Assembly: GCF_053078305.1 (NCBI RefSeq)
Contig: NZ_CP166879.1
Strand: one strand, 5' to 3'
Length of the DNA: 64,000 nucleotides
Position 1 is the stretch's first letter, and every line of letters starts with the position of its first letter. This document shows, in pieces, positions 13,618 through 22,850 of this stretch. Under the pieces are notes generated by a model. That model had not been told where the DNA came from and ran no database searches. It saw only the letters and a program-made list of their open reading frames with translations. Both the position numbers and the translations under genes were made by a program.

Positions 13618-13646
13618 AGCCCGCCGGTTCAGGCGGGCTTTTTTGT
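13618..13646 (+). terminator. Rho-independent terminator after lom
   Basis: CAGCCCGCC-GGTTCA-GGCGGGC hairpin followed by TTTTTTG. Confidence 0.7.
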
Positions 13647-13655
13647 GGGGTGAAT

Positions 13656-16600
13656 ATGGCAGTAAAGATTTCAGGTGTACTGAAAGACGGCACAGGAAAA
13701 CCGGTACAGAACTGCACAATCCAGCTGAAAGCAAAACGTAACAGCACCACGGTGGTGGTGAACACGCTGGCCTCAGAAAATCCGGATGAAGCCGGGCGTT
13801 ACAGCATGGACGTTGAGTACGGTCAGTACAGCGTTATTCTGTTGGTGGAAGGATTCCCGCCGTCACATGCCGGGACCATCACCGTGTATGAAGATTCTCA
13901 ACCCGGTACGCTGAATGATTTTCTCGGTGCCATGACGGAGGATGATGCCCGTCCGGAGGCACTGCGCCGTTTTGAACTGATGGTGGAAGAGGTGGCGCGT
14001 AACGCGTCCGTAGTGGCACAGAACACGGCAGCCGCGAAGAAGTCAGCCGGCGATGCCAGCACATCTGCCCGTGAGGCGGCAACCCATGCGACTGATGCTG
14101 CAGATTCAGCACGTGCAGCCAGCACGTCAGCCGGACAGGCCGCTTCGTCGGCTCAGTCAGCGTCTTCCAGCGCAGGAACGGCATCAACAAAGGCCACTGA
14201 AGCCTCAAAAAGTGCTGCCGCTGCAGAGTCCTCAAAAAGCGTGGCAGCTACCAGTGCCGGTGCGGCGAAAACGTCAGAAACGAATGCCGCAGCGTCAGAA
14301 CAATCAGCCGCCACTTCTGCATCCACCGCGACCACGAAAGCGTCAGAAGCTGCCACCTCAGCCCGGGATGCGGCGGCCTCAAAAGAGGCAGCGAAATCAT
14401 CAGAAACGAACGCATCCTTGAGCGCCAGTAGCGCAGCTTCCTCGGCAACGGCGGCAGGAAATTCCGCGAAGGCGGCAAAAACGTCCGAGACGAACGCCAG
14501 GTCTTCTGAGACGGCAGCGGGACAGAGCGCCTCAGCTGCGGCAGGCTCAAAAACAGCGGCTGCGTCGTCTGCCAGTGCCGCGTCAACAAGTGCCGGGCAG
14601 GCCTCAGCCAGTGCCACCGCCGCCGGAAAATCGGCAGAAAGCGCCGCATCATCCGCTTCAACAGCCACAACGAAGGCTGGCGAAGCCACTGAGCAGGCCA
14701 CGGCAGCAGCGAGGTCAGCTTCCGCAGCGAAGACATCCGAAACGAACGCGAAAGCGTCGGAAACCCGTGCAGAATCCTCAAAAACGGCAGCGGCATCGTC
14801 CGCCAGTTCGGCGGCGTCATCGGCATCATCGGCGTCTGCTTCAAAAGATGAGGCGACCAGACAGGCGTCAGCAGCGAAGGGCAGCGCCACGACGGCATCC
14901 ACGAAGGCGACAGAGGCTGCTGGTAGTGCGAAGGCAGCAGCTCAGAGCAAAAGTACGGCGGAATCTGCAGCAACGCGCGCTGAGACAGCGGCAAAACGGG
15001 CAGAGGATATTGCATCCGCCGTGGCACTTGAGGATGCGAGCACGACGAAAAAGGGGATAGTACAGCTCAGTAGTGCGACTAACAGCACTTCCGAGTCACT
15101 GGCGGCAACACCAAAAGCCGTTAAGGCCGCGTATGACCTGGCTAACGGGAAATACACCGCACAGGATGCAACGACAGCACAGAAAGGGATAATCCAGCTA
15201 AGCAGCGCGACCAACAGCACGTCTGAAACGCTGGCGGCAACGCCAAAGGCAGTAAAAGCAGCCAATGACAATGCTGAGAAACGTCTGCAGAAAGATCAGA
15301 ACGGTGCGGATATCCCTGGCAAAGACACCTTTACGAAAAATATTGGTGCCTGCCGTGCCTTCGGTGGGTCAGTAAGCACAACAACAGGAAACTGGACGAC
15401 TGCACAGTTTATCGAGTGGCTGGATTCTCAGGGAGCATTTAACCATCCATACTGGATGTGCAAGGGTTCCTGGTCTTATGGCAATAATAAAATCATTACT
15501 GATACTGGCTGCGGTAATATTCATCTCGCCGGAGCTGTCATTGAAGTAATGGGGATAAAGTCAGCGATGACGATCCGCATTACCACTCCGACCACATCCA
15601 GCGGTGGCGGAACAACCAACGCCCAGTTTACCTATATTAATCACGGAACAGATTATTCACCTGGCTGGCGAAGGGACTATAACTCCAGAAATAAGCCAAC
15701 GGCATCAGAGATCGGGGCGCTACCGTCAGGTGGAACAGCAGTATCATCAGTTAATCTGGCTTCAAAAGGTCGGGTAGCCGCGCTGACAGACAATACGCAG
15801 GGGGCAGCAGGTCTTGAGTTATACGAGGTGTATAACAACGGATATCCAACAACGTATGGAAATATCATTCACCTGAAAGGGATGACAGCCGTTGGCGAAG
15901 GTGAGTTACTCATCGGCTGGAGTGGTACAAGCGGTGCTCATGCTCCGGCATTTATTCGTTCACGACGGGATACGACCGACGCAAACTGGTCGCCGTGGGC
16001 GCAGCTTTACACCTCGGCTCATCCTCCTGCAGAGTTTTATCCAGTCGGTGCACCAATCCCGTGGCCATCAGATACCGTTCCGTCTGGTTATGCCCTGATG
16101 CAGGGGCAGACTTTTGACAAATCTGCATACCCGAAACTTGCAGCCGCTTATCCGTCAGGCGTGATCCCTGATATGCGTGGCTGGACGATTAAGGGCAAAC
16201 CTGCCAGTGGTCGGGCCGTATTGTCTCAGGAACAGGACGGCATTAAATCGCACACCCACAGCGCCAGCGCATCCAGTACGGATTTGGGGACGAAAACCAC
16301 ATCGTCGTTTGATTACGGCACTAAATCCACGAATAACATCGGGGCGCATACGCACAGTGTGAGCGGTACAGCCGCAAGTGCCGGAAACCATACTCATAGT
16401 GTCACAGGCGCATCAGCAGTCAGCCAGTGGTCACAAAATGGGTCAGTACATAAGGTAGTGTCTGCGGCCAGTGTGAATACAAGTGCTGCAGGAGCGCACA
16501 CTCATAGTGTCAGCGGCACAGCTGCATCTGCAGGTGCTCACGCACATACTGTCGGTATTGGTGCTCATACGCACTCGGTTGCGATTGGCTCACATGGACA

Positions 16601-16682
16601 CACCATCACCGTTAACGCTGCTGGTAACGCGGAAAACACCGTCAAAAACATCGCATTTAACTATATTGTGAGGCTTGCATAA
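13656..16682 (+). CDS. stf: Side tail fiber protein Stf, apparently intact, with Ala/Ser-rich repetitive shaft and His-rich C-terminal repeats
   Basis: ~1008-aa ORF; N-terminus [49 protein letters not shown]... and C-terminus ...[31 protein letters not shown] match K-12 StfR/lambda Stf family as recalled. Confidence 0.85.
14050..15010 (+). repeat. Low-complexity Ala/Ser/Thr-rich tandem repeats inside stf coding sequence
   Basis: Repeated motifs such as [19 protein letters not shown]; the run also generates long spurious ORFs on both strands (14153..14902 -, 14248..15027 -, 14575..15060 +). Confidence 0.7.
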
Positions 16683-17266
16683 TGGCATTCAGAATGAGTG
16701 AACAACCACGGACCATAAAAATTTATAATCTGCTGTCCGGAACTAATGAATTTATTGGTGAAGGTGATGCATATATTCCGCCTCATACAGGTCTGCCAGC
16801 AAACAGTACCGATATTGCACCGCCAGATATTCCGGCTGGTTTCGTGGCTGTTTTCAACAGTGATGAGTCATCGTGGCATCTCGTTGAAGATCATCGGGGT
16901 AAAACGGTTTATGACGTGGCTTCCGGCGACGCGTTATTTATTTCTGAACTCGGCTCATTACCGGAAAATGTCACCTGGTTATCCCCGGAAGGGGAGTTTC
17001 AGAAGTGGAACGGCACAGCCTGGGTGAAGGATACGGAAGCAGAAAAACTGTTCCGGATCCGGGAGGCGGAAGAAACAAAAAACAGCCTGATGCAGGTAGC
17101 CAGTGAGCATATAGCGCCGCTTCAGGATGCTGTGGATCTGGAGATCGCAACGGAGAAAGAAACCTTGTTGCTGGAAGCCTGGAAAAAGTATCGGGTGTTG
17201 CTGAACCGTGTTGATACATCAACTGCACCTGATATTGAGTGGCCTACGAACCCTGTCAGGGAGTAA
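16682..17266 (+). CDS. tfa: Tail fiber assembly protein Tfa
   Basis: 194-aa product [54 protein letters not shown]... matches the TfaR/Tfa family; start overlaps the stf stop. Confidence 0.88.
17101..17228 (+). repeat. Direct repeat copy 1 (tfa 3' end), roughly 85% identical to 18150..18277
   Basis: Sequences beginning CAGTGAGCATATAGCGCCGCTTCAGGATGCTGTGGATCTGGAGATCGCAACGGAG and CAGTGAGTATATTGCGCCACTGCAGGATGCTGTAGATCTGGAAATCGCAACGGAG align; identity is an eyeball estimate. Confidence 0.75.
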
Positions 17267-17320
17267 TCATTGGGATTATGCCGCAGCACGTCTTAAGCAA
17301 GAACGTGCTGCGGTTGGATG

Positions 17321-17989
17321 CTATTTTTTCCCTGAAGCGGAAAACATTACTACAGTACCTTGAACCTTGGTTTTAACATTCTCGAAATGCTCTGAGAGTA
17401 TATGTGTTAAGCCTTCTTCGGAATCTTTTGTGTTTGAAAAGATGCCTTTCTGATTGTAAATGCGCATCAGTTTTTGACCGAAGCTATTGTGCACAACTCC
17501 ATCGCCAAGAATTGTGGCTCCGTATAGAGTTCCATCGTCAGTTAAGGCCTGCGCCGCATTGCGTATTACACAGCTTTTTGTAGATATATTTCCAGGCAGG
17601 CAGTGAAGAAGGTAAAACATGGAAATGGAATCAAATTGACCATGTAACGCCGCGGGATAAGGTTCAAAAACATCATGGTTAATTTTATGTTTAATTTTTG
17701 ATTCCCCAGCCCTTGTAGATGCCGCGTTCAGGCTAGCTTCGTTCAAATCCATTAAAGATATCAGACTACTCTCAGGTACGTGAGTAAGGTAAAACCCAGT
17801 TCCAACACCAATATCCAGATGGTTGTTACCTAAATGTTCCAGAAAGTGTGGAAGAAGGTGTTCCTTTGTAGGACATCCCCATGCAAGCCGATTTGATACT
17901 CCCAAAACCCACCAGTCATAAAGCTTTAGGGTAAGTGGTGTGTAAATTTTAGCCCCATCATCTGTGTTTTTTTTCATTAATTTCACCAT
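17321..17989 (-). CDS. Class I SAM-dependent methyltransferase-like protein (resembles DLP12 ybcY family), prophage cargo
   Basis: 222-aa ORF with glycine-rich motif I (LDIGVGTGFY) typical of Rossmann-fold methyltransferases; AT-rich codon usage; lies between the two tfa-derived repeats. Confidence 0.65.
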   Translation of the reverse strand: MVKLMKKNTDDGAKIYTPLTLKLYDWWVLGVSNRLAWGCPTKEHLLPHFLEHLGNNHLDIGVGTGFYLTHVPESSLISLMDLNEASLNAASTRAGESKIKHKINHDVFEPYPAALHGQFDSISMFYLLHCLPGNISTKSCVIRNAAQALTDDGTLYGATILGDGVVHNSFGQKLMRIYNQKGIFSNTKDSEEGLTHILSEHFENVKTKVQGTVVMFSASGKK

Positions 17990-18149
17990 GTTATAGTTTT
18001 ATTTGTGAATTAAATCAATTATGGCGATGAATTACAAGGGGTTAAATGCTGCCGCAGCATAGCGATATTGAAATAGCATGGTATGCTTCGATACAGCAGG
18101 AGCCGAATGGCTGGAAGACCGTCACCACACAGTTCTACATCCAGGAATT

Positions 18150-18277
18150 CAGTGAGTATATTGCGCCACTGCAGGATGCTGTAGATCTGGAAATCGCAAC
18201 GGAGGAAGAAAGATCGTTGCTGGAGGCATGGAATAAATATCGGGTATTGTTGAATCGAGTTGATACATCAGTAGCTC
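18150..18277 (+). repeat. Direct repeat copy 2 (tfa 3' end remnant)
   Basis: See copy 1 at 17101..17228. Confidence 0.75.
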
Positions 18278-18351
18278 TGGGTATGAAGCTGTTTGTAACT
18301 CATGTTACAGTAACAGCCATTACTATCTCGAAGGTGCAAAATGTATATTGA
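18150..18351 (+). pseudogene. Tail fiber assembly gene remnant (tfaX-like 3' fragment)
   Basis: Translation ...[40 protein letters not shown] duplicates the Tfa C-terminus; no homologous N-terminal part. Confidence 0.6.
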
Positions 18352-18534
18352 TTTGATATTTTATAAATTTACTTCGAATCTGGCACGTCAACTTTTGATT
18401 AAAGTAATATCAGTTTTCGGCGAAAAAAGGACCGTGTACATGAGACGATTTCATACAAGAATAACAAAAATATGAATATGCTCCCAATGCAATATATGTT
18501 TTGCATTGGGAACAAATAGCGGAATATTTTGAAA

Positions 18535-20019
18535 TTATTGTATTTCTGCTTCAGAATTTCCTGGGCAGTATATATTTTCTGGTTTTTGTGGAGTGATCAG
18601 GTGATGTACAACTGCTTTATCTACACATAAATTAACTCCGGTGAGAGCTAATGTATGCCCATCACCATTTATTGTTAGTAACGGGCTGGAAAATTTCTCT
18701 GCCATCTTACGGGCATTAATCCAGGGCGTTGTTGGGTCGTATTTGTGTGCTACAAACAGTAAACCAGAGGGCAGAACAGTATTTTTCAGGCGAGTTTTGT
18801 TCAGGTCGCTATGTATTGGCCATAATTCACAAAAATCAGGTGAATCGGAACGTCCATTGTCAAAGTTAATAGCCGGGAAGGCATTCGCAAGAGCGTCTTT
18901 TCGGGATTTTCGCTCTTCTGGTGTTAATTGCTCATCCCCCTGATCTACACAGAGGATTACCCCCGAAGCATCGCTTGACTCTTCTGAGGCTATCGGAGCA
19001 CTGAGCGCAGTTTCAATTTCATTACTGACAATCCCCTGAGAGAACTGGCGTATGGCAGTTGCAAGGGTTGGCCATGATGAACGCCATAGCAGAAGGTCTG
19101 TTGTTAATGATATGAGTTCATCTGAAGATATATTTTCTCCCTTACTGTCTAATAAAGGTTTGTGATGTAATTTTGATAATAGCTCATGGAACTGAGTTAT
19201 TGCCTTATCTCTGTCTGAAGAAAGCGGGCAACTTTTTGTACGCGCACACCAGGATGCAAAGCGATCAAACGTTTCCTGATAACTCTGTGCCTGTTTGAGT
19301 TGCCATGTGAAGTTGTCCTCCAGGTCATCGATATCGACGACTCCATCAAGAACGATAGATCTTACGTTGTAGGGAAAACGTTCTGCATATAAGGCTGCAA
19401 TTTGAGTTCCATACGAATACGCCACGGCTGTCAGTTGTTTATCCCCCAAGGCTTGCCTAATACGATCAATATCGTATACAGCCTCGTTAGAGCCGATATG
19501 GCGAATGACTTCGGCTCCGGTATTATGGATACAGGCATTAATTTTATTTAATACTTGTTGCTTTTCGGTTATGTTTTCCTGAGTCTCTGTATCTGATTGC
19601 CGGCAGTTTATTGTCGGAGTGGACTGTCCGACGCCTCGAGGATCAAATCCAATAATATCCCATGACTCACGAAGATTTGTGACTGGCCAGTCAAAGTTAA
19701 TATAAGGATTTATGCCTGGTAACCCGGGACCACCACTTATTATCAGGATACTTCCTTTATGCTTGCTTTTTGCCGGCAATTTTGTCAACGCTAGTTTGAC
19801 TTGTGATTTTTTTTCATAAGAAGCATCTCCGCCTGTGTCTGTATATTTTAATGGAACAGACAAATAACCACATAGTAAGTCAGGAGACGGTTTTTCCTCA
19901 CCAAACCAGTGGTTGAATTGACTGGCCATACAGGATTGCCACTGTATCTGCTGGGCAGATACGGTTACTGGTAGAAGTAACGTTAAAACAACTTTGAAAT
20001 GAGTAATTATTTTTCGCAT
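18535..20019 (-). CDS. Secreted alpha/beta-hydrolase fold protein, likely S33-type (tripeptidyl aminopeptidase-like) peptidase/esterase; function unknown
   Basis: 494-aa ORF with N-terminal signal peptide MRKIITHFKVVLTLLLPVTVSAQQ, GFDPRGVGQS oxyanion-region motif and SYGT nucleophile-elbow-like motif; AT-rich. Confidence 0.65.
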   Translation of the reverse strand: MRKIITHFKVVLTLLLPVTVSAQQIQWQSCMASQFNHWFGEEKPSPDLLCGYLSVPLKYTDTGGDASYEKKSQVKLALTKLPAKSKHKGSILIISGGPGLPGINPYINFDWPVTNLRESWDIIGFDPRGVGQSTPTINCRQSDTETQENITEKQQVLNKINACIHNTGAEVIRHIGSNEAVYDIDRIRQALGDKQLTAVAYSYGTQIAALYAERFPYNVRSIVLDGVVDIDDLEDNFTWQLKQAQSYQETFDRFASWCARTKSCPLSSDRDKAITQFHELLSKLHHKPLLDSKGENISSDELISLTTDLLLWRSSWPTLATAIRQFSQGIVSNEIETALSAPIASEESSDASGVILCVDQGDEQLTPEERKSRKDALANAFPAINFDNGRSDSPDFCELWPIHSDLNKTRLKNTVLPSGLLFVAHKYDPTTPWINARKMAEKFSSPLLTINGDGHTLALTGVNLCVDKAVVHHLITPQKPENIYCPGNSEAEIQ

Positions 20020-20205
20020 TGTGTCTCTGAATATCGGAATAAAGATAAGATTTGAATATATTGAGGTCTTGTGTTGCGGTAAGAGATTACACGTTATGAC
20101 ATAGGTTAAATGCTTACAAAATTAGTGGATATTGCCTACTTGTAACTGTAAACAAATTCCCCGGGGTTATACAATACCACCGGGGAGAAAATCTGGTTAA
20201 CTTCG

Positions 20206-21159
20206 TTAAAAGGTGTACTTAAGACCAGCAGTAGTGATGAAGTTATAGTTTTCTATGCCTGCACCATTTTTGCTGTAGTCTGAAGTGTTATCATTGTGAT
20301 CATAAAGTGAAGTATTACCTTTTTTATTCGTAACCCGATTCCATGCGCCTTCAACATAAACCTTTGCGTTAGGTGTTACGTAATAACCTGCATTGACTGC
20401 AACAGAATAGTAATTTTGGTCTTTGACTTTACTGCGATAAGTGATTCTTTTTCCTGGGTCATAGTGCTCATCGTTATCAGATGCTTCCACCCAGCCGCTG
20501 TATTTAAATGTGCCACCTAGCTCAAAATCTTCATAACGATAACTTCCAGTCAAGCCAATGTAGGGCATTTTAAAACGTTGTTTGTAGCCGATTGCTCTTT
20601 CTCCATTCGGGAAGGAGCCGATATCATCTCTGAATCCCTCCTCAGAACTGTAGATATAGGAACCACCTCTGGCTGTAAAGCTATAACGGCTTTCCTGATA
20701 TCCGGCCATGAGTCCCAGGCGGTAATTGGGTTCGTTGAGGAGCCAGCCTTTGATATTCAGATCAAATTCGTTGGCATAATTGAGTTGTGTATCAGGGTGC
20801 CTACTTTCATCTGTCCAGGTTCCGGGGTTACTGGAATCCATCCAGTCCTGATCGACCATATTGCCACCTCGGCTGCCGAGAGTAGTCCAGCCCGCAGCCC
20901 CAATAGATATCTGGGGCATCAAATCCCAATTAATTGCACCTTTAATAATTGCAGCGTTATTGAATTTCCAGTCGAGTTGACTGACTTTTCGGCCTCCTTC
21001 TTCAGCTAGATAAACGCGCTCTTTTGTTTTTCCGCTCAGAGTTCCAAGACTAATGTCCGCATTTATGTTGTCAGGAGTAAACGATATAGTCTCGGTAGAA
21101 GCAAAAGAGCTGATCGCAATAGGGGTTGTCAGAACTATTCCCAGAAGTTTCGCCCGCAT
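20206..21159 (-). CDS. ompT: Omptin-family outer-membrane aspartyl protease, near-identical to OmpT
   Basis: 317-aa product MRAKLLGIVLTTPIAISSFASTETISFTPDNINADISLGTLSGKTKERVYLAEEGGRKVSQLDWKFNNAAIIKG... ending ...NFITTAGLKYTF, matching E. coli OmpT as recalled. Confidence 0.9.
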   Translation of the reverse strand: MRAKLLGIVLTTPIAISSFASTETISFTPDNINADISLGTLSGKTKERVYLAEEGGRKVSQLDWKFNNAAIIKGAINWDLMPQISIGAAGWTTLGSRGGNMVDQDWMDSSNPGTWTDESRHPDTQLNYANEFDLNIKGWLLNEPNYRLGLMAGYQESRYSFTARGGSYIYSSEEGFRDDIGSFPNGERAIGYKQRFKMPYIGLTGSYRYEDFELGGTFKYSGWVEASDNDEHYDPGKRITYRSKVKDQNYYSVAVNAGYYVTPNAKVYVEGAWNRVTNKKGNTSLYDHNDNTSDYSKNGAGIENYNFITTAGLKYTF

Positions 21160-21531
21160 AAAAGTTCTCCATTCAATCGTTTTAATGATTGAATATGTAT
21201 TTTTTATATCTAACTTAATGAGTCAATCACATATTGCTCCACTGTTTATATTTTGTTTAGTATTGAATGATTATCACAATGCGCTATCTGTTTTTGGTTT
21301 AATTATCTGTTATTGTTTTATGTTGCGGTTTTACTGTGTGGTTTTTTATGCTTTTGTGGTGTTTTTATCTATTTAAGCGCCATGCCTTTAAAGGCATATA
21401 AGCGAAAATAGCATGAGGTTTATCCTCAATTGCTATGTTTTTTAGTACAAAAAAGAGGGACAAAACTGAGACACACATAGCTTTGTACTGGATTGCAAGG
21501 CTTTGTGCTCTTCGATAGTGGTTAAGGCGGA

Positions 21532-22689
21532 TTACTCCACCTTCCCATCAAGCCAGTCCGCCCACCATTGCATCATTTCTCTGCGCTTATCGAGATACTG
21601 AGCATGGTTGTAAATTCCACGTACAGATCCGCCGTTGGCATGTGCCAGTTGCACTTCAATGGCGTCGGCAGGCCATTCGTGCTCGTTCATAATCGTGCTG
21701 AATTCATGCCTGAATCCGTGACCGCTTTCCAGACCTTCATAGCCGATTTGTTTGATCACAAGTAGCACCGCGTTCTCGCAGATTGGCTTCTTCTTATCGT
21801 TGCGCCCGGAAAAAACAAACTCTGATACTGGTTTAGTGATTGAGCTTAGTGTAGTGAGAAGTTCAACCACCTGGTCTGACATCGGGACAACATGAATTTT
21901 GCGTCCCTTCATCACATTGGCGTCGATGGTGATAATCCTGTTTTCAAAATCGACGTTCTTCCATAGCATGGAACGAAGCTCTTTTGTTCTGAGGGCTGTG
22001 TAGCGTAAAACTTTGGTCGCAATGAGCGATACGATGCTTCCTGAAAATGTTGCCAGTGCTTTGTTAAATGCCGGGATCTGGTCTGCAGGAAGAAACGGGA
22101 AGTTTTTCTTGCGGTATCCCTTCATGGCGTCAGCAAGGTCAGGTGCCGGGTTATATTTAGCCCTACCAGTGACAATAGCGTAACGGAAAACCTCGCCGCA
22201 TCTTCTGCGGGCTTTGTTGGCTCGCTCCATTGCACCGCGATCTTCAAATCTGCGGATTACTTCCAGCAGTTGCATCGGCTCAATATCCTGAATTTCAAGG
22301 CCGCCGATGATAGGTAAAATGTCGTCATCAAACATTTTTGCAAGTTCAGTTGCATAGCCTACTGACCAGACTTGCTTCTTGTGCTCGTACCATTCCTTGT
22401 AAATCGCACTAAAGGAATTGTTGTTAGACGAAGCCTTTTTCGCTTTTACCGGATCGATGCCAACCGAGATGTCTTTCCTCGCGGTCCATGCTTTATCTCT
22501 TGCCTCCTGCAAAGTCATAAGCGGATATTTTCCTACGGTCAGGATTTTCTCCTTACCGTCAATCTTGTAGCGAAGCTGCCATACCTTTTTCCCTGACACA
22601 GGGACATAAAGGTACAGGCCATTACCATCGAGTAGGCGGTATGGTTTTTCTTTCGGCTTTGCTGCTTCAATCTGCTTAACGGTGAGCAT
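21532..22689 (-). CDS. intS: Prophage tyrosine integrase (IntS/P4-like family)
   Basis: Product MLTVKQIEAAKPKEKPYRLLDGNGLYLYVPVSGKKVWQLRYKIDGKEK... with C-terminal catalytic region (..HGFRHEF..., ..RGIYNHAQY..); adjacent to tRNA; start chosen at the MLTVKQ Met (ORF track extends to 22725). Confidence 0.88.
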   Translation of the reverse strand: MLTVKQIEAAKPKEKPYRLLDGNGLYLYVPVSGKKVWQLRYKIDGKEKILTVGKYPLMTLQEARDKAWTARKDISVGIDPVKAKKASSNNNSFSAIYKEWYEHKKQVWSVGYATELAKMFDDDILPIIGGLEIQDIEPMQLLEVIRRFEDRGAMERANKARRRCGEVFRYAIVTGRAKYNPAPDLADAMKGYRKKNFPFLPADQIPAFNKALATFSGSIVSLIATKVLRYTALRTKELRSMLWKNVDFENRIITIDANVMKGRKIHVVPMSDQVVELLTTLSSITKPVSEFVFSGRNDKKKPICENAVLLVIKQIGYEGLESGHGFRHEFSTIMNEHEWPADAIEVQLAHANGGSVRGIYNHAQYLDKRREMMQWWADWLDGKVE

Positions 22690-22850
22690 GGGTAAAAATC
22701 CGGTGGGTAAAATTATTTTATCCACTTTTTACCCGTCATGGAGTGCGGCTGTCAACGATCTGAAGCGAACCATGACGAACTGTGAATCTACGGAAGGCTT
22801 GATATTCAGGGGATTTTGCGGACTGGTACGGATGGAGGCGAACTGATAAA

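Follow-up and report, generated by a model that had tools for sequence, protein, structure and literature searches.

Near the right end of a lambda-like Escherichia coli prophage, the 3' end of tfa, the gene for tail fibre assembly, is found twice, once on each side of a leftward gene for a methyltransferase dependent on S-adenosylmethionine (SAM). Why should a piece of tfa stand behind such a gene, and is the arrangement a device or a scar? We addressed this question in a stretch of 64,000 nucleotides (nt) from contig NZ_CP166879.1 (RefSeq assembly GCF_053078305.1), hereafter the window, for which an earlier note, made from the sequence alone, had described the repeats and proposed several origins for them. 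The locus proved not to be new: it is the already annotated, common ybcY–tfaX region that ends lambda-like E. coli prophages, and the window is a new instance of it, for which the standard mosaic picture of lambdoid phages suffices. Most probably, ordinary lambdoid mosaicism has set a cargo methyltransferase gene beside the decaying leftover of an older tfa, and the locus is not an invertible module.

Two unequal copies of the tfa 3' end enclose a methyltransferase gene

The features on which the argument rests are the following (ORF, open reading frame; aa, amino acids).
16682-17266, plus strand: tfa, lambda-type, 194 aa, intact, the last gene of the late operon.
17090-17221, plus strand: left repeat copy, encoding part of the C-terminal region of the intact Tfa.
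17280-17329, plus strand: terminator of tfa and the late operon (hairpin 17280-17314, U-run 17324-17329).
17321-17989, minus strand: class I SAM-dependent methyltransferase, 222-aa ORF, an intact homologue of K-12 ybcY.
17990-18045: AT-rich divergent intergenic region with leftward sigma-70-like hexamers.
18046-18351, plus strand: chimeric ORF of 101 aa, the equivalent of K-12 tfaX.
18046-18138, plus strand: 5' part of tfaX, from a 79-aa gene of the phrog_3893 type.
18139-18270, plus strand: right repeat copy, the remnant of a different, older tfa allele.
18271-18351, plus strand: tail of tfaX, unrelated or strongly diverged.

A single long direct repeat was reported, between 17090-17221 and 18139-18270 (132 nt, spacing 1049), and pairwise blastn aligned the two copies over all 132 nt, ungapped, at 83.3% identity (E 2.2e-37). 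The direct repeat that the earlier note had derived from the tfa 3' end is thus real, and both copies are in frame with their own ORFs. The note had set the copies at 17101-17228 and 18150-18277, in the correct register but with displaced ends, as the start and the end of the actual repeat lie 11 and 7 nt, respectively, before those given; within those limits 106 of 128 positions are identical (82.8%), so that its figure of ~85% was slightly high. Pairwise blastn of the two flanks gave no significant match besides the 132-nt repeat. The methyltransferase ORF lies wholly between the copies on the minus strand, as had been proposed.

The left copy encodes Tfa residues ~137-180. Where codons differ between the copies, the change is purely synonymous in 12 and alters the amino acid in 8, and the copies agree over at most 12 consecutive nt. 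The resident tfa was not the source of the right copy, because the closest annotated tfa 3' ends among the matches listed are 86-89% identical to it. Rather than a recent duplication, the two copies are the end of a working tfa, on the left, and a piece of a more distant allele, on the right. PMC9608196 (citing North et al. 2019) describes the C-terminal region of Tfa as conserved and the N-terminal fibre-binding domains as variable. Since the repeated segment encodes part of this conserved region, it is common to different tfa alleles and is found at module borders.

Prevalence was assessed in 5426 complete E. coli genomes. The methyltransferase gene is present at ≥95% identity in 3798 of them (~70%), at up to four places per genome, and the stretch 16682-18551 at ≥80% coverage in 1128. 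The product predicted for recombination between the repeats (tfa to 17221 joined to 18271-18600) was at least 80% covered at no place in these genomes. Apparent deletion hits (H22-H24) were rejected as artefacts in which both repeat copies had been aligned to one and the same tfa 3' end. As the copies never agree over more than 12 nt in a row, homologous recombination from copy to copy would be inefficient and gene loss by this route rare.

The three genes carry familiar labels in RefSeq, namely tail fiber assembly protein, class I SAM-dependent methyltransferase and partial tail fiber assembly pseudogene. The Tfa encoded at 16682-17266 matched phrog_105 ('tail fiber assembly') over residues 1-192 (E 3e-100), combines a variable N-terminal fibre-binding domain with a conserved C-terminal helical domain (domains assigned after PMC9608196) within the usual length of ~175-200 aa, and is labelled tail fiber assembly protein in the near-identical record of strain JNEC-KY177 (L001). 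The methyltransferase block also occurs in the isolated lambda-like phages PhiR26_1, 2G7b, ev243 and PhiR68_2 and in the deposited genomes of the lambda-like phages PhiR30_1 and Turner; PhiR26_1 has the layout of the window from stf to ompT, and its annotator named the methyltransferase 'YbcY'.

The history of the locus changes near the tfa 3' end

The window was cut into segments, which were compared with ten loci. The tfa body and the left repeat are 91-97% identical across loci, whereas the piece from 17222 to 17320, with the tfa stop codon and the hairpin, shows 99-100% identity in the eight loci where it is complete, and the methyltransferase gene (99.1-99.9% nucleotide identity) and the spacer 17990-18138 (97-99%) are similarly conserved in all ten. 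This step in identity indicates that the history of the locus changes near 17221. Terminator, methyltransferase, spacer and right repeat thus form a block that is 98-100% identical in prophages at no fewer than four chromosomal sites, while the tfa genes of these prophages differ by 5-9%. These findings agree with the proposal of a recombination scar with an accessory methyltransferase behind the late-operon terminator.

A survey of homologous prophages, suggested in the earlier note, revealed that both flanks of the block vary. On the left, a full tfa is present in the window and in two of the other loci (L005 and L014). In a second group, a tfa stub that begins at about 17147 (2G7b, AF3) or about 17121 (WCHEC025970, Ec-050, Ayreon) is fused to unrelated fibre genes; in 2G7b and Ayreon, which have a different fibre module, the matching tfa 3' stub before the same terminator amounts to 75-101 nt. 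In PhiR68_2 and the O157-type locus there is no tfa on the left, and homology begins at the hairpin. The left copy is therefore not an inherent partner of the block, as in some relatives the block starts at the terminator. The tfa stubs of the 2G7b-type and Ayreon-type phages show that the same process took place a second time.

On the right, many genomes match only to 18270. What follows differs: the block is followed by appY in K-12 and by the hydrolase–ompT pair in the window, it ends beside potB in two other strains, and in strain PA45B (L014) the right copy extends to a full-length tfa 3' end with a second hairpin, after which the prophage ends at ompW'. Within 5282-5692 of the PA45B locus, this second full tfa 3' end with its hairpin is succeeded by another partial pseudogene, with a DUF4376 domain, ahead of ompW'.

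The block can also lose its gene. At 3469-3617 of the Ayreon locus (L019), the methyltransferase stop codon and last 11 codons (36 nt) are joined directly to the spacer and the fragment of the 79-aa gene. The methyltransferase was therefore once present there and was later deleted, that is, it has been lost at least once. E. coli CH4797 (H189) matches the same 36 nt of the methyltransferase only.

A shared terminator and predicted leftward promoters

The hairpin is found in every locus that bears the methyltransferase, even in those that have no upstream tfa. Its RNA fold has an energy of -28.5 kcal/mol (z -4.4), and homologous hairpins stand behind the tfa of lambda and behind the right copy of PA45B. 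The region of the U-run overlaps, on the opposite strand, the methyltransferase stop codon (17321-17323) and the two final lysine codons; read on the minus strand, the hairpin has no U-run. A 45-aa ORF on the plus strand (17239-17376) spans the hairpin and extends into the 3' end of the methyltransferase gene; RefSeq lists it as a hypothetical protein, or as a 'nucleocapsid protein' in a K-12-type strain, and it is probably a spurious call.

At the other end of the methyltransferase gene, reading of the sequence together with a consensus scan pointed to two putative leftward promoters, one with TTGATT (18018-18013) and TATAAC (17995-17990) separated by 17 nt and one of the form TTAACC-16-CATAAT. 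The scan found 5 promoters versus 5.3 expected from shuffled sequence, that is, not above expectation. The TTGATT-17-TATAAC hexamers are listed for K-12 ybcY at a site that bound RpoD, and also H-NS, in genomic SELEX (systematic evolution of ligands by exponential enrichment; PMC3946193).

The right-hand ORF is a two-part chimera

PHROG profiles resolved the product of the right-hand ORF into parts. While phrog_2341 covers the whole ORF (E 5e-56), phrog_3893 matches residues 3-37 (E 4e-7) and the Tfa families match residues 29-77 only, so that an ORF beginning with 34 residues of phrog_3893 type does not qualify as a Tfa. With the first 37 residues as query, tblastn retrieved an intact 79-aa ORF of Klebsiella phage Kp4882-3 (L022, 3004-3243) at 51% identity, and the start of tfaX also matched weakly the beginning of HK225_029, a separate gene beside dinI. 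The corresponding spacer segment of Ayreon diverges after the equivalent of 18132, which places the joint between the 79-aa-gene fragment and the tfa fragment at about 18132-18139. These profile and alignment results indicate that tfaX opens with the initial ~31-34 codons of an unrelated phage gene (79 aa), fused in frame to a tfa 3' fragment. Beyond 18270 its tail resembles a normal tfa end at roughly 55% (by eye, with a 2-nt gap) and may be a strongly diverged tfa tail or a chance likeness.

For some genomes, the RefSeq annotation has a partial 'DinI family' pseudogene at positions equivalent to 18064-18144, on the minus strand. We consider this label doubtful, since the plus-strand reading is better backed by the phrog_3893, Klebsiella and HK225_029 matches. 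The phrog_3893 family (79-99 aa), donor of the tfaX start, lies beside SOS-type genes in Kp4882-3 (L022, 3004-3571) and HK225 (L021, 2162-2800). In the former, a partly overlapping ORF downstream of the 79-aa gene looks UmuD-like by eye; in the latter, the family member and dinI are divergently transcribed.

The form of tfaX varied greatly across the ten loci. A product of 101 aa is found in three (L001 and L005 counted with the window form), and PA45B has 89 aa with a normal Tfa end. Shorter forms comprise 82 aa with an IS66-family element just downstream, 66 aa after a frameshift (twice), 61 aa with a stop (twice) and 11 aa after a frameshift (twice). As tfaX is disrupted in 6 of the 10 loci, in at least four different ways, it is a scar and not a gene. 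The locus as a whole is thus a patchwork with sharp joints, and its right copy is a piece of a different tfa allele joined to part of an unrelated gene. The idea of a capture at a tfa-tfa junction therefore held as regards the scar; a simple junction it is not, as the right-hand ORF joins the 5' end of the 79-aa gene to the tfa 3' fragment.

The methyltransferase is a predicted class I enzyme of the small-molecule type

The 222-aa ORF likely starts at the ATG at 17977, giving 218 aa, because its homologues begin (MKK/MNK) at the equivalent codon; phrog_2132 matches from residue 5 (E 3e-156). Its Pfam matches are all generic (Methyltransf_12/23/25/11/31), and with these go a seven-strand Rossmann-like fold and a glycine-rich motif I (D/E-x-G-x-G-x-G), as expected for class I. 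The AlphaFold model has a predicted local distance difference test score (pLDDT) of 91. Its fold neighbours are mostly small-molecule and lipid enzymes together with a few RNA methyltransferases, and no DNA methyltransferase is among them; Foldseek ranked a bacterial phosphatidylethanolamine N-methyltransferase first. Solved structures share only 10-21% identity with the protein, the best PDB sequence matches are JHAMT and UbiG (E about 1e-3), and NCBIfam gave sub-threshold matches to CpaM, RquA and PmtA.

The earlier note had seen no DPPY or NPPY motif in the protein and left open whether it acts on DNA or on small molecules. A motif check bore out the absence of a DPPY-type motif IV, (D/N/S)PP(Y/F/W), as would be needed, along with a DNA target-recognition domain, for an N6-adenine or N4-cytosine DNA methyltransferase. 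For a C5-cytosine enzyme, neither a PC[QK] motif nor a Pfam DNA_methylase match was found; the lone ENV at residue 203 lies outside the motif context of that class. The neighbours in the window (tfa, a pseudogene, a hydrolase gene and ompT) do not form a restriction-modification or defence system, the chromosomal homologues stand alone, and PADLOC found nothing convincing for the methyltransferase or tfaX, the former matching only mad2 (E 7e-4, 16.6 bits). Judged by motifs and predicted fold, the protein is a cytoplasmic class I enzyme of the small-molecule type; it is neither a DNA methyltransferase nor part of a restriction-modification system. In the literature searched, ybcY and tfaX were met only in gene lists and SELEX tables, and we found no functional study of them.

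Of the 2296 homologues, proteins of ~218 aa with 56-70% identity occur in Salmonella, Enterobacter, Citrobacter, Klebsiella, Yersinia, Erwinia and Aeromonas. Those of Salmonella and Enterobacter are encoded by lone chromosomal genes among housekeeping genes, in non-phage surroundings. The family alignment has the invariant motifs YDWWVL, DIGVGTG, FDS.S..YLLHCL and GATI.G, and the N-terminal helix motif YDWWVLxxSNxxAWxC is conserved and specific to the YbcY-type family. Compared with the chromosomal homologue of Enterobacter, the ratio of non-synonymous to synonymous substitution rates (dN/dS) is 0.12, with dS saturated. The gene would have been captured from an enterobacterial chromosome.

That it is an accessory gene, as had been claimed, is supported by its GC content (0.41 versus 0.57 in the structural genes) and by its absence from the same position in lambda, which has ea47 instead, and in Ayreon; some other prophages likewise have tfa and no methyltransferase gene. 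The gene is intact in 8 of the 10 loci, so that disruption in all relatives, which the earlier note would have counted against its view, was not observed.

Origin of the locus and alternative explanations

How could such a structure have been made? Probably it arose by a single non-homologous joint between two phage genomes, the common route by which lambdoid mosaics form. One parent would have supplied the order tfa–terminator–methyltransferase–79-aa gene, the other tfa–terminator–prophage end, and the joint would have placed the methyltransferase block before the 3' end of the second phage's tfa. Later swaps of fibre modules on the left and of cargo on the right would have used, or stopped at, the conserved tfa segment; crossovers and leftover fragments would gather there, the segment being shared by otherwise different tfa genes. 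In the lysogen, the methyltransferase may be transcribed leftward from its own predicted sigma-70 promoter.

Several observations weigh against this account of a cargo gene kept beside a scar. Intact prophage copies of the methyltransferase gene differ by 6 amino-acid-changing and 2 synonymous variants, K-12-type and O157-type loci have frameshifts in it, and phage Ayreon has lost it by deletion; selection on it in E. coli prophages may therefore be weak. Its expression is also in question, as the K-12 SELEX site of its predicted promoter co-binds H-NS and the gene may thus be silenced. Finally, no tfa allele that could have donated the right copy turned up, the nearest of those listed being given above, and the order of events is accordingly a deduction.

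We considered the possibility that the locus is a cassette, in which the tfa copies are kept for moving the block by homologous recombination with a resident tfa 3' end. The near-identity of the block at several chromosomal sites next to divergent tfa genes would fit this idea, as would the rise of identity near the end of the left repeat, the full tfa 3' end with hairpin on both sides of the block in PA45B, and the tfa stubs found in front of the block even where the phage has another type of fibre. Yet the block of PhiR68_2 and of the O157-type locus starts at the hairpin with no left tfa copy, the right flank breaks off at 18270 in the window and is interrupted by stops or frameshifts elsewhere, and any conserved neighbour of a module would yield the same pattern unselected. 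We therefore regard a cassette as rather unlikely.

A further conjecture concerns the enzyme. The top Foldseek match, together with the weak NCBIfam matches to PmtA and RquA, suggests a membrane lipid, quinone or envelope precursor of the host as substrate, and YbcY might then be a lysogenic-conversion methyltransferase that acts with Lom, OmpT and the TAP-like hydrolase. If so, the cell surface would be remodelled in roughly 70% of E. coli strains. We hold this specific role to be quite improbable.

Might tfaX be a working small protein, in which a new N-terminal peptide and the Tfa C-terminal region (a trimerisation domain according to the literature) modulate fibre assembly or hinder superinfecting phages? 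It has an ATG preceded by a Shine-Dalgarno-like AAGGGG, a PHROG family of its own (~88 aa) and, in PA45B, a form with a normal Tfa C-terminus. The lesions described above, of which at least four are independent, have accumulated next to a methyltransferase gene that is mostly intact, however; the protein would also be without the N-terminal fibre-binding domain, as delimited in PMC9608196, and RefSeq labels it a partial pseudogene. Such a function is very doubtful.

Orphan DNA methyltransferases are often carried by phages, and the weak mad2 match might be read as a trace of one with an epigenetic or anti-restriction role. As the DPPY-type and PCQ motifs are both absent, this is highly improbable.

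The earlier note had also raised the remnant of an invertible or alternative tail-fibre module whose invertase is gone; modules of this kind are Mu G, P1 C and e14 P. In favour of such a remnant speak the duplicated tfa sequence next to stf and the Pin-type recombinase gene between tfa and the methyltransferase in PhiR68_2. In the invertible segments of Mu and P1 the alternative chaperone gene is inverted. This reading has next to no chance of being right, since both copies are direct, on the plus strand, with no inverted repeats flanking them and no invertase ORF in 13000-22000, a fragment of the 79-aa gene and not stf stands upstream of the right copy, the crossover-core pattern AAACCNNGGTTT gave five matches at ≤1 mismatch versus 2.3 expected (within chance), the lone nearby match resembling a gix/hix core (17362-17373, one mismatch) is unpaired and inside the methyltransferase coding sequence, and the pin gene of PhiR68_2 goes with an upstream Rac-type fibre module that ynaE separates from the block.

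Ordinary mosaicism thus remains by far our preferred explanation, and the value of the result lies mainly in annotation, in that a widespread prophage locus of E. coli can be read clearly: ybcY remains intact in many strains though broken in K-12, tfaX is a two-part chimeric scar, and the conserved tfa 3' end marks the border at which tail-fibre and cargo modules swap. What this very common prophage methyltransferase methylates is a question of some value.

Neighbouring genes and further observations

The surrounding features of the window, taken from the ORF map of 13000-22000 and the annotation of L001, are these.
12992-13591: lom.
13650-16682: side tail fibre gene stf, 1010 aa.
18535-20019, minus strand: TAP-like alpha/beta hydrolase, 494 aa, with a hydrophobic N-terminus (a signal peptide by eye).
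20206-21159, minus strand: ompT, 317 aa, between the accessory region and the integrase gene.
21532-22725: integrase, intS in the L001 annotation, adjoining tRNA-Arg(CCU).
22851-22925: tRNA-Arg(CCU), the prophage end in the window.

A lambda-like prophage has integrated at tRNA-Arg(CCU), with 13650-22925 as its right end, and core chromosome (yfdC, fadL, fadI, fadJ) follows beyond the tRNA gene. Behind stf, tfa and the terminator, the low-GC accessory region, which occupies the position of the lambda b region, holds the leftward methyltransferase, tfaX, the TAP-like hydrolase and ompT; the integrase gene comes next. The hydrolase was recognised by PADLOC as 'TAP-like protein' (C3a206, E 4.5e-57) and by phrog_20134, while its NCBIfam matches to prolyl aminopeptidase were far below cut-off. 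It lies between tfaX and ompT in the genomes of PhiR26_1 and 2G7b, where ompT is likewise phage-borne; in other genomes appY replaces the hydrolase–ompT block, or the prophage ends there. Both genes are neighbouring cargo outside the repeat structure. The ompT of L001 is labelled a pseudogene with an internal stop, whereas that of the window is a full ORF of 317 aa.

Two observations lie further afield. The middle of stf (14000-15300, plus strand) is rich in Ala, Ser and Thr codons, with many degenerate direct repeats (families D1, D3, D5 and D7) and a GC content of up to 0.64, and includes a 107-nt repeat pair (15031-15137 and 15163-15269). In JNEC-KY177 (L001), a second prophage, which the window does not have, lies on the far side of the same tRNA gene and carries an MT-A70 family methyltransferase gene, toxin-antitoxin genes and a restriction-enzyme fragment.

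Comparison with known systems

The closest named relative is the region of the DLP12 prophage of E. coli K-12 whose genes are called tfaD'–ybcY'–tfaX. PMC3946193 uses these gene names as well. In a K-12-type strain the order is nohD, truncated terminase and tfa fragments, frameshifted methyltransferase, tfa fragment, appY, ompT and envY. DLP12 (tfaD'–ybcY'–tfaX–appY–ompT) shares with the window the gene order, orientation, hairpin, tfaX start and downstream ompT, with 99.1% DNA identity in the methyltransferase gene and 98% in the spacer. It differs in having a tfa cut off at its 5' end, a frameshifted ybcY, a tfaX ended by a stop at codon 62 and appY in place of the hydrolase gene, whereas in the window tfa and the methyltransferase gene are intact and the prophage is at tRNA-Arg(CCU).

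The phages PhiR26_1, PhiR30_1, ev243, 2G7b and Turner carry the block at 98-99% identity, hydrolase and ompT genes included. In 2G7b and ev243 another fibre module is present, with only the tfa 3' stub upstream, and the tfaX of 2G7b is frameshifted; in PhiR68_2 the block is preceded by stf–tfa–pin–ynaE and followed by appY–ompT. The invertible segments Mu G, P1 C and e14 P, served by Gin, Cin and Pin, resemble the window in having a second tfa-derived sequence near stf and tfa, and differ from it in that the window has direct copies and no crossover sites, invertase or alternative stf 3' end. From UbiG, UbiE/Coq5, PmtA, phosphoethanolamine N-methyltransferase, JHAMT and natural-product methyltransferases, the enzyme is set apart by its family-specific N-terminal helix motif.

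Lambda has, like the window, a lambda-type Tfa, a homologous tfa 3' end with hairpin and leftward accessory genes directly after it; unlike the window, it has ea47 in the place of the methyltransferase gene and no second tfa fragment. Since ea47, on the opposite strand, directly follows the tfa end and hairpin in lambda, the methyltransferase gene stands at the place where the accessory region of lambda starts. Lambdoid phages reportedly carry morons and other accessory genes (lom, bor and those of the HK97 type), as Juhala et al. are said to have described in 2000 and as Hendrix's mosaic model would have it. Unlike a moron between two essential genes, the methyltransferase gene stands in the accessory region, where the late operon ends; it resembles the morons in its own predicted promoter, its lower GC content, its absence from related phages and its sharp mosaic joints.

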